Source: an uncultured Desulfosarcina sp. (GTDB lineage Bacteria > Desulfobacterota > Desulfobacteria > Desulfobacterales > Desulfosarcinaceae). From it: a DNA stretch of 64,000 nucleotides. The DNA lies in the NCBI GenBank assembly GCA_963674945.2, contig CAXXWQ010000003.1, positions 2,432,001-2,496,000 of the forward strand, in the 5' to 3' direction. Both the position numbers and the translations under genes were made by a program. Positions 1-10,118 of the stretch are shown in pieces (position 1 is the stretch's first letter; each line of letters opens with the position of its first letter). A model generated the notes under the pieces. It was not told the DNA's origin, ran no database searches, and saw nothing but the letters and a program-made list of their open reading frames with translations.

Positions 1-1011
1 TATCAAAACGCCGTACTCATCAAAGAAATAAAGCAGGCTGTCGTTACGCTTCCACACATATTCGTTATTTTCCAACACGACTGAACTCTTTTCATTGTAA
101 AGACCAATGAAGTTGATATTGTCTGTTGTTGAAAAAAACACGCCTCGTCCGGACTCATCTTTGATTTTAATCATACTGGAATCGGAGTAGTTAGTGGTCA
201 GTACGGCACTGAAACTATGAGACCATCCGTATCCGAGGGCTCCGCTCTGAGTGGACTGGCTGTTATAGAATCGTTTGAAAACCAAACCATTATGAAATGG
301 TGATGGGAGTGAGATATCTCTCTCTCTTTCCACCAAGTTGCCGCTTAAAATGTTTATCGGGTCACCTTTTTTTTCACATATCCGATATGGGGGGAGATTG
401 ATTTCGTTTCCCAAGTAAAGTTCGGTCTCCCAGTCGCAGGCATCGCCCACACCGTCACCATCATGATCCAGCTGACCTGGGTTAAACTCCTCTATACAGT
501 TGTCTGTGCAGTCGCCTACCCCATCTCCGTCAAAATCGTTTCCCTCGCAGCAATCAAAGTCTCCATCGCCGTCAGAATCCGGTAGCCAAAAATAAGCGTA
601 CAGGACGTCGTCAAACATTTGTGTTTCCGAATTATATGTACTATCCTTGTGGCAGATAGCAGATGGATTAGCAGTCCCTGAGTACATATGGGGCATGTAT
701 ACAGATTCGAGAACATAACTAATAGGGTTTGTCGGGTGGTTTGACTGAATTGCAGCAAAAGCTTCGTTGTAGCTATCGTAAACTCCCATTGCATGACCAA
801 TAAAATTAATACTTCCGTCTGTCCATACAGCATCGTGAAAAGAACCACAATCAGGGCTTAGCTCAGCCCCAAAGACATCGTGGCTGAATAGCAGAGGAAA
901 GTGAAATCCAAAGAGGGTAACGATTATGGTTATGGTAATTGATTTAACCGACATCAATTTCGACTTAAAGTGATAAGCCTTGATAAAAAAAGCAGAAATT
1001 CGCCTCATCAT
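1..1011 (-). CDS. Rhs/YD-repeat-type protein, N-terminal 337 aa (signal peptide, TSP3 Ca-binding repeats, DUF6531); continues beyond the window start
   Basis: Hand-translated, absent from the ORF track because no stop occurs in the window. ATG at 1011 follows an AGGGAGAG RBS and the frame is open to base 1. Motifs: DFDGDGVGDCTDNCIEEFNPGQLDHDGDGVGDACD (TSP3) and GDPINILSGNLVERERDISLP...FKRFYNSQ...GALGYGWSHSF (DUF6531), then YFFDEYG. Confidence 0.88.
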   Translation of the reverse strand, partial: MMRRISAFFIKAYHFKSKLMSVKSITITIIVTLFGFHFPLLFSHDVFGAELSPDCGSFHDAVWTDGSINFIGHAMGVYDSYNEAFAAIQSNHPTNPISYVLESVYMPHMYSGTANPSAICHKDSTYNSETQMFDDVLYAYFWLPDSDGDGDFDCCEGNDFDGDGVGDCTDNCIEEFNPGQLDHDGDGVGDACDWETELYLGNEINLPPYRICEKKGDPINILSGNLVERERDISLPSPFHNGLVFKRFYNSQSTQSGALGYGWSHSFSAVLTTNYSDSSMIKIKDESGRGVFFSTTDNINFIGLYNEKSSVVLENNEYVWKRNDSLLYFFDEYGVLI

Positions 1012-1141
1012 TCTCTCCCTTATCGCTCTGCTTATGCTTGAATGGAAAATGTAAGTTCAGCATTAATGGGGTTGAATCCGTATGTAAATTCACAGTTGAA
1101 AGACCAGACAAATGATGAATCAAATGAGGAAGAGGTATCGA

Positions 1142-1687
1142 TCATCTTGGTTGTACCTTGATAAAATGGGTCATCCTTCCTCTTGCATCGTAAATATAAT
1201 AATCGCCTGGATTCAAAGTATCATTTTCGTGCGACAGGTCACCGCCTAAGTTATTGACTTCCCACCAGTCGGGAATGCTATCGCCATCGGAGTCCATGAC
1301 GCCGTCGGAGGGGTCCAGTCCAAGATTATATTCATCCATGTTGTTTAACCCGTCACCGTCATAATCATCGGTCGGTCCTTGCGATAGGTCAGGAAAATAC
1401 TGAAGCTCCCAGTTGTTGGGAAGACCGTCGTCGAAAGAGACGATAGTGAGCGTGCCTCCGGATTTGATCACAGTGGTGGGTCTCAGTTTGACGGTCGCCT
1501 CCGTCGCCAATGTCACATCCACGCCATCGTCCACCGTGCAGCTGTTTTGGGTGATGATATTACCCGTGGAAGTATATGTGTCGCTGGTGAGACCCCCTTC
1601 CAGGTAGAGGTCGGCGGCAGCGGCAACGGATACCGCCAAAGGAATTGCCGTCAATATCCAAATCAAACAGGTAATGAATCTGTTCAT
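1142..1687 (-). CDS. Secreted protein with a beta-rich domain, bacterial TSP3-like Ca-binding repeats and one C-terminal YD repeat
   Basis: Signal peptide ending VAAA; DDGLPNNWE, DYDGDGLNNMDEY and DSDGDSIPDWWE repeats; terminal YIYDARGRMT. Confidence 0.8.
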   Translation of the reverse strand: MNRFITCLIWILTAIPLAVSVAAAADLYLEGGLTSDTYTSTGNIITQNSCTVDDGVDVTLATEATVKLRPTTVIKSGGTLTIVSFDDGLPNNWELQYFPDLSQGPTDDYDGDGLNNMDEYNLGLDPSDGVMDSDGDSIPDWWEVNNLGGDLSHENDTLNPGDYYIYDARGRMTHFIKVQPR

Positions 1688-1767
1688 CTTTTTTTCCTCG
1701 TGAGGTATTGTGGTGGAGGCAGGTCATGAGCGGTTACCAAAGAGCACTCTTCGATAATCGACTGGCA

Positions 1768-2889
1768 TCAAGATTTTTCCTCCAGTTTCGCCAGCCGGTC
1801 CAATACCTCATCCAAGGTCTTCTGGATGGCTTCGTTTTCCACTTTTAATTCATCGCTTACTGCCTTAAGCGCTTCGTTATCGGATTTTAGTTCTTCAACG
1901 GCAATCTGAAGCTCTTCGACAATATCCATGCTTGACGTCTGTTCCTTCAGTGTATCGATTTCAGTGCTCAGTTCCTTGACGGCTTCTACGATCGGCGGAA
2001 GTAATCGTGTGTATGCGATTGACTTGTAACCATCAGCGCCAGTCAGTACTAATTCCGGATATATCTCTTCTACTTCCTGGGCTATAAAGCCGAATTGATA
2101 TTTTTGATCCTTATCCGGCTTTTTCATTTTTGTGTGATATTTTACGCTGCGTAATTTCTTGATTTGGTCCAGTGAATCCCCAAGCTCCTCAATATCTTCC
2201 TTGATTCTTTCGTCCGAGGACTCACTAAAAATTCCATCTTCCCTAAAGAGGAAATACCCATTATCGTTCACCATAAGTTCTAAATAGGACACGCCATAAT
2301 AACCTCCAAAGAAGTTAGCCTTCATTGGTGTGCTCCAGTCGGTCATTAAATTCTGGACGATCAACCCGCCGGCCTTCGAACCTGCGACGGTCGTAGCGTC
2401 GCCTTTAACATGCAACATCGCACTCGGCGATGTCGTATTGATACCGACATTCCCAAATCTATTCTGAAACAATCCCAGATTCCATGGGATTGTCGAGCCG
2501 TTTGTACCGGAACCTGCGGATTCTAACCGGAAATTTCCGTTCTCATCCATCCGAAGCTTAATTGCGCCATTGCATGCACCGCAGTATTTATCATTGTTGT
2601 CCGCACCCGTCTTGATCTGCCAATTCCCGTATCCATCGTGTGTAGTTATACGAATTTGGCCACTGTCAAACCATATGTTGTCCTCACCTGTAAGATAAAT
2701 GGCAGGAGTTTCGTTCGCTCCCGGGACATGAAGCTTTCCCAGAGGATTCGTTACACCAACCCCGACTCTACCCTGCTCCGTTACAATCAAGCTCTCGGTA
2801 TCTTGGGAAAAAACAAAGGTAGGAGAAAAAAAGGTGAGAATAAACGCAATAATGATGGGCAATACGCATTGAACCGCTTTCATGGTCAT
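1768..2889 (-). CDS. Secreted tail-fibre-like protein with a Peptidase_S74 intramolecular chaperone and a C-terminal coiled coil
   Basis: Signal peptide; VGVGVTNP and GNVGINTTSP repeats; SDERIK autocleavage motif; GFIAQEVEEIYPELV; YTRLLPPIVEAVKEL. GGAGG RBS, so the true start may be the ATG at 2883. Confidence 0.88.
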   Translation of the reverse strand: MTMKAVQCVLPIIIAFILTFFSPTFVFSQDTESLIVTEQGRVGVGVTNPLGKLHVPGANETPAIYLTGEDNIWFDSGQIRITTHDGYGNWQIKTGADNNDKYCGACNGAIKLRMDENGNFRLESAGSGTNGSTIPWNLGLFQNRFGNVGINTTSPSAMLHVKGDATTVAGSKAGGLIVQNLMTDWSTPMKANFFGGYYGVSYLELMVNDNGYFLFREDGIFSESSDERIKEDIEELGDSLDQIKKLRSVKYHTKMKKPDKDQKYQFGFIAQEVEEIYPELVLTGADGYKSIAYTRLLPPIVEAVKELSTEIDTLKEQTSSMDIVEELQIAVEELKSDNEALKAVSDELKVENEAIQKTLDEVLDRLAKLEEKS

Positions 2890-3122
2890 CCCTCCGCATG
2901 GTCGTTAATGGCTATCGTTTCTTTTACAAGATCCAGGCTATTTATCAGAATCGCGTAGTTCGAAATCGCGCTTTAGCTACAACATTCACTCACATCTCAG
3001 CATATATCACTCACAACGTCGCATGGCAGAGGATCAACGTTCGGCCAAACGAATGGATGACCGTATTGTCGAATTTCTCAACAAACGGCAGCGTATTTTA
3101 GAAGATTGTATTGATAGAGAAT

Positions 3123-3151
3123 TTTATAAATCAGAAGAGTCGAAGTGTCAA
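3123..3151 (-). promoter_or_regulatory. Sigma70-type promoter upstream of the fibre/Rhs cluster
   Basis: Minus strand TTGACA-N17-TATAAA. Confidence 0.65.
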
Positions 3152-3743
3152 CACTATATATAAATGTACTCATTTCGCGTAAATTATAAGTAGTGAAAAA
3201 AATCTCATATACTGAAATTGAAATAATGAGGATTGGGGGCAGGTAAGTGAGGAAATAAGTATAGTGAGCATCAATTAACGAGACGAGTGAAAAAGTACCA
3301 ATCTTGATTGTTGCTTATCTTCCTTATTAATTTGCGAAATCATAATCCGAGTATAATGGCGATGAGGTCATGCCGAGATGGTAGAAGGAAGAAATCGTGC
3401 TTATCCCAAATTGCTTATCAGTTTTGTCGGACAACAAAAAGGATTCGGGAATCGTATTCTTGTTCCCCAAAATGGCCAAGGCCCCACCATTGAGGGCCTT
3501 AAAAATAGGTTGCAGTTAACTATTTTATCGGCTGGTTTGGGAAAAACGTGAGCCGACTATTTCCGGCACGGACCGTCAATTTCACTCGTAACGGCCGGTT
3601 TGGTGACGCAGCTAATGACCTGGTGCCCTCGATAAAGACAGCGATGAGGTTCTGATACGGCTCTCGGGGAACCTGATACCGTTTCCATTAACGAGGAGAG
3701 CATGGCATGTATGATGAACTTGACACATACGGAGTAAGAAACG

Positions 3744-4001
3744 ATGAAAAAGACTCCCATCGACAAAGACGAAGCCCTCAGGATCGCCCAAAAGCAATGC
3801 CCCCCATCGATAGAGTCGTTTGAGATTTATGAACAAAGGCCGGAAAATTGGAATATCTATGTTGCGCCGGCGGTTAGCGGGGAATGTTGGTATATCCAGG
3901 CGCCAGGCACAGGCGCCGGCCCGTAAATCTCTCGTGCCATAATCATTTCCAAGGAAAACGGCGAGGTAATCTATGATGGATCCGCAAACGATGAAGGATA
4001 A
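3744..4001 (+). pseudogene. Small hypothetical protein interrupted by an in-frame TAA at 3924-3926
   Basis: GGAG RBS. After the stop the same frame continues ISRAIIISKENGEVIYDGSANDEG to TAA at 4001. Confidence 0.5.
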
Positions 4002-4365
4002 AACGGTCCTCCGGCGTTCCCTATGTTATTGAAGCCCCAAAATATGCAGGGGGATCACAAGTTTCCCGCATCGCATTTTGTATAAGACTGCCTTTCCGAG
4101 ATTTTCCGGTGCAAGTTTTGTTTGACATTTCTTCCTTCAGAGGAGAATATCAATTTATAGCAACAGTACGACCTTAGCTCCTAATTTCTACACCGTTCCT
4201 ACCCGCCAGTTCATTCATGTTTGTTGCTTGATAATCCGGGTAACAATTTAAATTCATTAAATTAGTGCCCATTTTTCTGCGGACACATCTTGGGCAATCG
4301 CGCGGATCTTCCTGGATAGTGCTTGGGAGAAACCGTCTCGGTTAGTTATACAAAGTAGGTTTCAG

Positions 4366-4950: not shown

Positions 4951-4983
4951 AAGGAGCTACAAATTTTAAATTTGTAACCCCTT
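4951..4983 (-). terminator. Hairpin downstream of tRNA-Arg
   Basis: Minus strand AAGGGGTTACAAATTT...AAATTTGTAGCTCCTT followed by T-rich sequence. Confidence 0.6.
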
Positions 4984-4991
4984 GAAATTTC

Positions 4992-5068
<77 letters not shown>

Positions 5069-7025: not shown

Positions 7026-7102
7026 CGGGACATGGCTCAGTCTGGTAGAGCACAGCGTTCGGGACGCTGGGGTCGCAGGTTCAAATCCTGCTGTCCCGAC
7101 CA
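7026..7102 (+). tRNA. tRNA-Pro(CGG)
   Basis: 77 nt, CAGCG-TTCGGGA-CGCTG anticodon arm, TTCAAAT T-loop, encoded CCA. Confidence 0.97.
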
Positions 7103-8482: not shown

Positions 8483-10118
8483 CCTGATTAAAACACTATA
8501 ACCAATTGATAAAACATATATATTATGGTAATATTAGGGCACTAAACGCTCACTTCGGAGGTGAAATCAATGCGGCGTCCGATCACCATAAAACACGAGA
8601 TGGAAAAACTTGCCAGTCATAGCGGATTGATCAATATCGGCGCATTACTTGATGCGATAAATTTCAGGTTCCGTTTCGAAAAGATCAACGGCGTCCATTG
8701 TGTAGACCCGAAAATTTCTCATGGTGACATTTTAGCTTCGATGATTGCTCTCATGAGTATTGGTAAACCTGATTACGATGCGATCGAGATTTTTCGTGAG
8801 AAGCAAGAATTTTTCAACAAGGCCATTGGCAATCGTGCATGCCCGTCAAGCCCGACATTGCGTCAGCGAATCGATTTGATCGGCAACCAAGCCGATAAGC
8901 TGATTAAGGATGCAGGCGTTGATTTGGTTCGATCCTGCGCTCCGGCGATTTCACCCATCCAAACCAGTGCGGGTGATTTCCTTCCTTTGGATATGGATGT
9001 GAGTCCGTTTGACAACTCAAAGACTCAAAAGGAAGGCGTTTCCAGAACCTACAAAGGCACGGATGGCTTCGCTCCGATCTTTGCCTACCTGGGCACCGAG
9101 GGGTATCTGGTGAATCTTGAGTTCAGAGAAGGAAAACAACACTGCCAGAAAAACACCCCCGAATTTATCAACGCCACCTTGGATTATGCCAGGCAAATTA
9201 CCGATCAGCCTATTTTGATGAGGTTGGATTCAGGAAACGACAGTCAAGACAACTTTCCTGACGATTCACGAAAGAATGTCCACTTTATCATCAAACGCAA
9301 TTTGCGTAGAGAATCTGTTCAAAAGTGGGTTGATCTGGCAAAAAAATCCGGCAAGCAACAGCATTGCCGCTCAGGAAAATGTGTATGGATCGGAAAGACG
9401 ATTGAAGACATCAACGGCAATCCATTGCGCTACCCAATCATCTTTGAGGTTACCGAAAGGCATACCAAAAAGGGCCAAGTACTGCTGTTCCCCGAGTATC
9501 AGATCGATACCTATTGGTGCAGCCTCGCACAGTTGCCACCGGATGAGGTGATTCGACTTTATCACGATCACGGTACCAGCGAGCAGTTTCACTCCGAACT
9601 CAAATCCGACATGGGCCTGGAGCGCTTGCCGAGCGGTCATTTTTCCACCAATAGCTTGATTCTTCATTTGGCGATGCTGACGTACAACATGCTACGGATT
9701 ATCGGACAAATCAGCATCGAAGAGAGTGATCCGACTGAATTGCCCGGTATACGCCGGAAGAAAGTTACCCGGCGTCGAATCCGGACAGTCATGCAGGACT
9801 TGATGTATATGGCCGGTCGATTAGTAACCAGAAGTAGAAAATGGTACATATCCTTTGGCCAACTCAATCCATTTTCCAAACTGATGGATCGGATTTATCT
9901 TCGTCTGAATTTGCTTTCCGCTATGAAGTAGCTATAATTTTTAAAAGAACAATTTTACAGGCATTTGCTTGGTGATTTGCTATGGCTAAAGAATGAGAAA
10001 CAGGAGCAAAATTCCTTCGAAATTTGAAAATAGTGAGAAAAATTATCAACAAATGATGGTGTGTGAGGCAATCGCCCCGCGCCAATCCTAACAGCAAAAA
10101 TTAGGCCACTGATTCAGG
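8483..10118 (+). mobile_element. IS1380-family insertion sequence (~1636 bp)
   Basis: Single transposase. Ends CCTGATTAAA and (reverse complement) CCTGAATCAG match at 7/10. Size is typical of the family. Confidence 0.7.
8561..9931 (+). CDS. IS1380-family DDE transposase
   Basis: PSSPTLRQR, LDMDVS, RLDSG, YHDHGTSEQFHSELK, LAMLTYN. Confidence 0.92.
   Translation: MKSMRRPITIKHEMEKLASHSGLINIGALLDAINFRFRFEKINGVHCVDPKISHGDILASMIALMSIGKPDYDAIEIFREKQEFFNKAIGNRACPSSPTLRQRIDLIGNQADKLIKDAGVDLVRSCAPAISPIQTSAGDFLPLDMDVSPFDNSKTQKEGVSRTYKGTDGFAPIFAYLGTEGYLVNLEFREGKQHCQKNTPEFINATLDYARQITDQPILMRLDSGNDSQDNFPDDSRKNVHFIIKRNLRRESVQKWVDLAKKSGKQQHCRSGKCVWIGKTIEDINGNPLRYPIIFEVTERHTKKGQVLLFPEYQIDTYWCSLAQLPPDEVIRLYHDHGTSEQFHSELKSDMGLERLPSGHFSTNSLILHLAMLTYNMLRIIGQISIEESDPTELPGIRRKKVTRRRIRTVMQDLMYMAGRLVTRSRKWYISFGQLNPFSKLMDRIYLRLNLLSAMK

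Follow-up and report, generated by a model that had tools for sequence, protein, structure and literature searches.

A 64,000-nucleotide stretch of the genome of an uncultured Desulfosarcina sp. (here called the window) begins with a cassette of three genes, which encode an S74 fibre (P0001), a small adaptor (P0002) and an Rhs protein (P0003). The reading preferred here, to which we assign a probability of roughly 60%, is that the three products form a secreted toxin particle: the fibre is docked by its base on the adaptor, the adaptor is clipped to the Rhs cage, the toxin lies inside the cage and the fibre picks the target. The cassette is a real and recurring one of the Rhs polymorphic toxin class, with a fibre-docking adaptor that has not previously been described. 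The initial annotation of this DNA had interpreted the genes as a module for toxin delivery or adhesion that does not depend on a type VI secretion system (T6SS), and this interpretation is supported; it withstood all three of the refuting conditions that it had named. Coordinates are window positions unless they carry the prefix L or G.

The three genes are co-oriented on the minus strand, as had been claimed, and the open reading frame (ORF) of the third runs past the left window end. The near-consensus promoter placed ahead of them also holds as a candidate: it matches the sigma70 consensus at 11 of 12 positions (TTGACA-17-TATAAA) and is the sole site with at least 10 matches found between 2890 and 3700 by a script search. 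Sites with at least 11 of 12 matches number 144 genome-wide, or about 0.003 per 300 nucleotides. The promoter-scan listing does not contain it because its -10 box lacks the last T, which the scan rule requires. Each protein starts with a hydrophobic stretch, again as annotated (best 12-residue hydropathy 2.91, 2.53 and 2.43 for fibre, adaptor and Rhs protein). Signal peptides are predicted for the fibre and the adaptor from this hydropathy and because conservation starts directly after an AxA-like site; the Rhs N-terminus is the least typical signal of the three, with a long basic n-region and an h-region from residue 25.

The N-terminal domain of the adaptor appears to be a "3-coathanger stack" beta-helix, a new recognition here. 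P0002 itself matches neither Pfam nor the coathanger model NF045639, and it aligns with the two of seven adaptor-like homologues that pass the NF045639 cut-off of 26 bits (L039, 26.5; L047, 33.8). The name of that model says C-terminal, whereas the coathanger is N-terminal in the adaptor. A predicted structure of P0002 has a local confidence (pLDDT) above 90 over the domain. A fold search with this structure gave weak matches (best Z 4.6, none at or above 5). Small beta-helices (MinC, bactofilin, SRRP) make up those of low root-mean-square deviation, a likeness that goes no further than the general arrangement; PAAR and gp38 are not among the matches listed. The initial annotation had not seen the domain, yet it is the part of the adaptor that tracks the fibre and is predicted to bind it. 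Farther along the chain, TSP3_bac was matched in 4 of 5 homologous adaptors scanned, and the DxDxDG motifs of P0002, taken alone, suggest that it may bind calcium.

Binding of the adaptor to the fibre base was modelled with three fibre copies (residues 29-310) and one adaptor domain (residues 25-90), together with three controls. The complex scored 0.62 and the best control 0.00; at least 80% of the contacts agree between runs, and the partner has a pLDDT of at least 83. The mark for this score was reached by 116 of 157 solved pairs and by 2 of 215 mismatched pairs, counts that apply only roughly here. In the modelled interface, residues 30-40 of all three fibre copies face adaptor residues 64-84, taking in conserved positions on both sides (L34 and V36 of the fibre, G71 and G77 of the adaptor). 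The fibre copies, folded together in the model, have a pLDDT of 77-78, and since solved relatives of the fibre exist, likeness to them may help the predicted fold. One adaptor domain would cap three fibre start loops; the model supports such binding and does not show it. It backs the first half of the link from fibre through small protein to Rhs cage that the initial annotation had proposed.

The order fibre-adaptor-Rhs recurs at 7 loci in five genomes and one metagenome contig (this cassette, G000:C3; G064:C456; G050:C174 and G050:C127, in both of which the fibre gene is cut by the contig end; G004:C161; G345:C120, from another family; and the metagenome contig), bearing out the co-occurrence in other genomes on which the annotation had hung its proposal. 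Identity among the recurring cassettes is about 25-40%. Three of the 7 cages are of the DUF6531 type and four of the SpvB/FG-GAP type, and since both types occur behind the same fibre-adaptor pair, this pair does not depend on the kind of cage. A fibre gene or fragment lies upstream of 10/10 N-terminal coathanger genes with intact upstream DNA, against 0/3 YD-tailed genes that lack the coathanger and have upstream DNA in view (Fisher p 0.0035, related genes not being independent). The count of ten omits the deleted second copy described below and one gene at a contig start, and two of the ten are no independent test because they were found through the fibre.

The cassette is rare in the phylum. 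S74 was matched in 7 of 65 genomes of the family, and the adaptor-domain profile matched 1 of 400 other genomes of the phylum, 27 of which had S74. A scan of the genome collection with the adaptor alignment was dominated by TSP3 repeats and gave 79 loci, three of them, all already known, with coathanger or fibre. The fibre start, scanned against metagenomes, gave 17 loci: 15 internal repeats of viral or other fibres, one at a contig end and one full triad.

The C-terminal YD hairpin of the adaptor likely joins the Rhs shell, to judge from where such tails occur. YD tails are characteristic of genes that lie directly upstream of Rhs genes with a signal, and among the 4740 ORFs of this genome only five have one, two of these being the adaptor copies. 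A profile search gave 340 clusters at 50% identity, and architectures were counted over the 149 newly listed ones. Thirty of the listed clusters combine a signal, an N-terminal coathanger and TSP3, and 23 of them retain the YD tail; four further clusters have TSP3 and a YD tail behind a start that bears no signal, and five carry the coathanger within an Rhs protein. An exclusive partnership of coathanger and fibre was considered and rejected, the domain being found mostly in other proteins and rarely near S74. Secreted proteins without a coathanger, 795-943 amino acids long where whole or nearly so, also end in a YD hairpin directly 5' of signal-bearing DUF6531 Rhs genes (L055, L056, L057:10716-13103 and L058:9026-11830) and look like a second kind of clip-on accessory. 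Such unrelated YD-tailed proteins stand upstream in 4 of 10 Rhs loci chosen by DUF6531 alone, against the 5/4740 of the genome at large.

Bacteroidota have what may be a fused form. DUF6443 was matched in 24 of 151 Bacteroidota genomes; 41 of the 75 places listed were examined with wide flanks, and 33 were kept after eight had been dropped with the core out of view. Four of the 33 have both fibre genes upstream and a coathanger-like insert in the shell, two a fibre only, one a coathanger only and 26 neither (p 0.0017), so that the insert adjoins fibre genes at 4 of 5 loci. A coathanger at the N-terminus of DUF6443 proteins was also considered and rejected, since the domain, where present, lies within the shell at a distance of 300-600 residues ahead of the core. 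S74 is present in 10 of 16 Bacteroidota genomes with NF045639 and in 41 of 135 without it. At three Bacteroidota loci (L262, L265, L268) a gene that looks OmpH/Skp-like from its sequence stands between the fibre genes and split Rhs genes, two of them also having a lipoprotein-like gene; it is possibly a dedicated periplasmic chaperone.

The identification of P0001 as an S74 fibre was correct. Behind a predicted signal (residues 1-28) come the conserved start loop, GxVGIxxxxP repeats, a variable middle, the S74 chaperone-protease (60.4 bits against a cut-off of 22, E 2e-16) and a C-terminal coiled coil. S225, R228 and K230 are invariant across an alignment of 21 fibre sequences. The closest solved relative of the fibre-family profile is Bdellovibrio Bd2133 (8ond, E 6e-22), and the 6f45 fibre was matched in the same kind of search. 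Between their conserved ends the fibre bodies are highly variable, and a single adaptor or cage may be preceded by two or three different fibres. Some fibres end in a PDYVF-type domain, unmatched by PF13884, in place of S74 (L039:6882-8021, L174:7111-8202, L243), and fibres of both types can precede one adaptor.

P0003 is a DUF6531 Rhs protein, as annotated. Its order is predicted signal, TSP3, DUF6531 (listed at 136-366), YD shell, a core that ends in DPWG (1404-1407) and a tip of 141 residues; the YD core and the tip thus lie where the annotation had expected them, beyond the left window edge. DUF6531 is matched at 216-292 (E 1.8e-17), the RHS repeats are matched by profile and the core matches TIGR03696 with 95.5 bits (cut-off 32.5). 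TSP3 stands less firmly, with a TSP_3 match at 145-180 (E 8.8e-5) whose score falls under the family cut-off. The profile scan gave no propeller or FN match, and TSP3 and DUF6531 adjoin the shell directly.

Sequence landmarks suggest that the tip may be a papain-like enzyme of the permuted kind with its site of action in the envelope. The cysteine of its NNCQDF motif (Cys1526) is found as NC(Q) in 9/9 rows of the tip family, and His1446, 80 residues before it, in all five rows that span that site; action in the envelope fits the membrane-anchored neighbour P0004. The tip gave a poor fold model (pLDDT 51) and no match at E 0.001, and a solved-structure search matched core residues only. A TseH label on 14% of one Atlas cluster (score 0.85) is a lead only. 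P0004, the candidate for the immunity gene that had been sought in the left flank, matched no family in profile scans. In the second cassette copy, where the tip is another one, so is the downstream gene, and this co-variation, with the position of P0004, suggests that P0004 likely neutralises a tip presumed to be toxic. Both cassette copies are followed by a gene that looks lipoprotein-like and belongs to no known family; it occurs a third time elsewhere, with 56-76% identity (L003:2649-3458; L004:16500-17201; L006:9797-10498).

The cassette lies in a 29-kb integrative island with integrase, primase and helicase genes. A tRNA gene and a 68-bp att repeat mark the right border, the other copy of the repeat lying outside the window, some 24.1 kb to the left of position 1; no tail or capsid gene was recognised among the three ORFs annotated in the island. 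A second copy of the cassette (G000:C2:38533-47288, or L004:8533-17288) lies beside a tRNA-Gln gene. It is 92% identical in DNA over adaptor and shell, with an unrelated tip and a different downstream gene, and such exchange of tips on a conserved shell, as read from the sequences, is the pattern of polymorphic toxins. This copy lacks what corresponds to window 1640-3698, namely the fibre gene, the promoter and the signal of the adaptor, and a DDE transposase gene interrupts its Rhs gene. A third Rhs gene of this genome (L005:5434-13368, G000:C2; 2644 amino acids) also bears a signal. Its product has Ig-like domains at the N-terminus, and an insertion of some 900 amino acids, made up of carboxypeptidase-regulatory repeats, immediately precedes the core; the gene has no adaptor or fibre upstream and two small membrane-protein genes downstream.

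The lack of T6SS parts, claimed for the window, extends to the whole genome (98.7% complete), where Hcp (PF05638), VgrG (TIGR01646) and PAAR (PF05488) have no match. The type II secretin GspD is matched with 526 bits (cut-off 351). No membrane anchor is seen in the fibre, adaptor or Rhs chain.

Table 1. Features of the cassette and its surroundings
Feature	Position	Strand	Basis and remarks
Fibre gene P0001, 373 amino acids	1768..2889	-	Signal, start loop, repeats, variable middle, S74, coiled coil
Fibre start loop, residues 30-40, predicted adaptor docking site	2770..2802	-	L34 and V36 nearly invariant; complex model
Peptidase_S74, residues 225-282, intact SDxRxK	2044..2217	-	Profile match and alignment
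Adaptor gene P0002, 181 amino acids	1142..1687	-	Signal (predicted, 1-24), then coathanger domain and DxDxDG repeats, with the YD hairpin at the C-terminus
3-coathanger-stack-like beta-helix domain, residues 25-84	1436..1615	-	Homologue profile matches, alignment and model
Single C-terminal YD beta-hairpin	1154..1207	-	Model strands 162-166 and 172-177; conserved in family
Rhs gene P0003, first 337 of 1549 codons	1..1011	-	Continues left of window, L003:4362-9011
Candidate immunity gene P0004, 170 amino acids	L003:3836-4348	-	13 bp after P0003 stop, outside window; N-terminal hydrophobic helix
Sigma70-like promoter candidate	3123..3151	-	Activity only predicted
tRNA-Arg(ACG) 4992-5068 and 68-bp att repeat 4973-5040	4973..5068	-	Right border of the island with the cassette

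Two further features were noted in the window. Window 3699-4037, which adjoins the cassette in both island copies, is repeated at C2:38533-38872 and C3:901336-901661 with 84-86% identity, and a 456-codon transposase-looking ORF lies at window 8561-9931, after a tRNA-Pro gene (7026-7102).

A particle of this kind could be made as follows. The fibre, adaptor and Rhs chains would cross the inner membrane by Sec, to judge from their signal-like N-termini. S74, whose catalytic motif is observed and whose activity is known from the family, would trimerise the fibre and cut itself off at Ser225. One adaptor would bind the fibre base in a 1:3 ratio, as the controlled model and the genomic covariation suggest, and its YD hairpin would add to the beta-shell of the Rhs protein. 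The cage likely encloses a self-cleaved papain-like toxin, likely neutralised by the product of the next gene. The folded particle may then leave by what we infer to be type II secretion, the secretin being present, after which the variable fibre body would bind a surface receptor on a competitor and the tip would act in the envelope of that cell.

Several observations weigh against this picture or the breadth of its parts. GspK was unmatched by profile in the genome, GspD and GspK being the type II components searched for. The fibre gene is gone from the second cassette copy, which is also broken by the transposase; that the adaptor signal is absent too points to a broken copy from which the fibre was lost. 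P0006 of this genome and other signal-bearing Rhs proteins occur without adaptor or fibre, which means that a fibre is no general requirement. In the phylum sample, 29 other S74 loci were inspected and none shows a coathanger within 1.5 kb. The G016 match to P0002 (37% over residues 8-137) stands alone, with neither a fibre nor an Rhs gene within 20 kb, and is not hit by the adaptor profile. Most of the remaining listed clusters carry the coathanger in the middle or at the C-terminus of unrelated proteins. No shell indel separates cages with a YD-tailed neighbour from those without one, in an alignment of about 330-400 residues of 11 proteins, five rows of which are badly anchored. The PPPDE (PF05903) match behind the papain-like assignment of the tip stays under the cut-off (E 0.032, and 1.7e-5 for a homologue). 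Among the four Bacteroidota inserts that accompany fibres, three are weak profile hits of one subtype (single-sequence E 2e-5 to 3e-4), though they still rank in the top five of all ORFs scanned, and only 1 of 22 Bacteroidota NF045639 places, compared by eye, lies within 5 kb of a hit to PF13884, a profile that does not detect fibres of the PDYVF type.

The same assembly might serve another end, with the fibre tethering the cage to the surface or matrix of the producer, or to an inert surface. The particle would then be displayed there as a contact toxin or an adhesin and not be aimed at rivals, much like teneurin-like proteins, for which surface display has been proposed (PMC13018210). A retained particle would need a tether in any case, no chain of the three having a membrane anchor, and P0006 and other signal-bearing Rhs proteins have Ig-like or carboxypeptidase-regulatory repeats where the fibre would be. 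The variability of fibre bodies, and the two or three fibres per adaptor or cage, are nevertheless the pattern of the prey-binding MAT fibres of Bdellovibrio (PMC10769870), and we regard self-tethering as unlikely. Somewhat less likely again is that fibre and adaptor are an adhesin pair in their own right, with the Rhs toxin-immunity pair co-transcribed and co-mobilised and never bound to it, and the YD tail a relic. The adaptor-cage contact is indeed the inferred one, the coathanger gene of L047 stands behind a fibre and has no YD tail, and the coathanger occurs mostly outside Rhs systems, with no matching gap seen in the shells. A mere relic fits poorly with the retention of the YD tail in most clusters of the adaptor architecture, with the enrichment of unrelated YD-tailed secreted proteins just upstream of DUF6531 Rhs genes, and with the fusion of the coathanger into Rhs shells elsewhere.

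It is very improbable that the S74 gene is a stray remnant of a phage tail fibre, set beside an ordinary Rhs locus by assembly of the island. The integrase and primase of the island and the rarity of the cassette in the phylum would suit such an origin, but the recurrence of the same order at 7 loci of such low identity largely refutes it; the signal-like N-terminus, the intact catalytic motif, the interface predicted on a conserved loop and the lack of recognised tail or capsid genes among the three annotated island ORFs also speak for the three-part particle instead.

The DUF6531 plug is a feature of the cages of T6SS Rhs effectors, which depend on VgrG/PAAR for delivery. Those with solved cages (8h8a/8h8b, 7q97, 8qja and Tse15, 8uy4) share the YD shell and DPxG core with P0003 (E down to 2e-52), but the protein here starts with a signal-like sequence, in a genome where Hcp, VgrG and PAAR went unmatched. 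Trimeric spikes and fibres with a monomeric cap are known from VgrG, capped by PAAR, and from T-even gp37, capped by gp38. As predicted for the adaptor, a single chain there sits where the three-fold axis of a trimeric beta structure ends, but it caps the distal, C-terminal end whereas the adaptor is predicted on the N-terminal base. Teneurin-like proteins are defined by a superfold of FN-plug and NHL propeller ahead of the YD shell, and P0003 shows neither propeller nor FN domain there.

Rhs polymorphic toxins exported by Sec and type II secretion, or of the TcdB/TcaC type, were catalogued by Zhang et al. in 2012 (PMC3482391), papain-like tips and SpvB-headed forms included, also from delta-proteobacteria. 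They have a signal peptide, RHS repeats, a variable C-terminal toxin and an adjacent immunity gene, of which P0003 shows the RHS repeats and a variable tip and, as predictions, the signal, the toxicity and the immunity gene; in the available text, "tail-fiber" appears solely as a type of repeat inside toxin proteins, and no separate S74 fibre gene or adaptor is named. S74 fibres act as prey adhesins in Bdellovibrio (MAT; Caulton et al. 2024, PMC10769870). Shared with the cassette fibres are the signal peptide and the trimeric beta fibre, both predicted here, the V-G-G/N-x-x-x-P-x-x-x-L loop motif and the SDxxxK motif of the self-cleaving chaperone. MATs are about 1000 amino acids long with a beta-rich N-domain of 130 residues; the cassette fibres, of 290-390 amino acids, lack that domain and, unlike MATs, have an 11-residue loop and GxVGIG repeat straight after the signal and stand beside an adaptor and a toxin cage. 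Teneurin-like proteins, whose hosts include Thermodesulfobacteriota, bring together a YD cage, adhesion domains and a polymorphic toxin with its immunity gene, and no machine that would deliver them is obvious (PMC13018210). They share with the cassette the YD cage, the variable tip and the neighbouring immunity gene, a candidate one here, but they carry adhesion domains on a single chain built around the teneurin superfold, where the cassette would target through a separate fibre and an adaptor. No literature description of the triad or of a coathanger function was met in a search whose scope excluded subscription journals and supplements, those of PMC3482391 being ones that may hold relevant gene neighbourhoods; the main text of the TANFOR paper (PMC7073777) mentions neither S74 nor fibres.

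How Rhs/YD cages that have no type VI machine reach their targets is stated to be open in the 2026 paper on teneurin-like proteins (PMC13018210). A wider proposal, which we hold tentatively and whose odds fall a little short of even, is that the coathanger serves generally as a socket into which secreted phage-like trimeric fibres fit with their N-terminal base, and the terminal YD hairpin, just as generally, as a clip onto Rhs shells. Together they would define a class of T6SS-independent toxin particles, spread across phyla and not described before, in which cage, tip and receptor-binding fibre are separate parts that are exchanged in nature; it would take the form of a split adaptor in Desulfobacterota and of a fused insert in Bacteroidota. 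The cassette yields a concrete hypothesis at residue level, with a fibre loop of 11 residues, a socket of 60 and a clip of 20, whose parts are small and amenable to testing in E. coli, and it offers a first candidate function for the coathanger domain. If true, the proposal would be a Gram-negative answer to the question of how signal-peptide Rhs cages find their targets, and it may give a reason why cellular genomes retain signal-bearing "phage tail fibre" genes.

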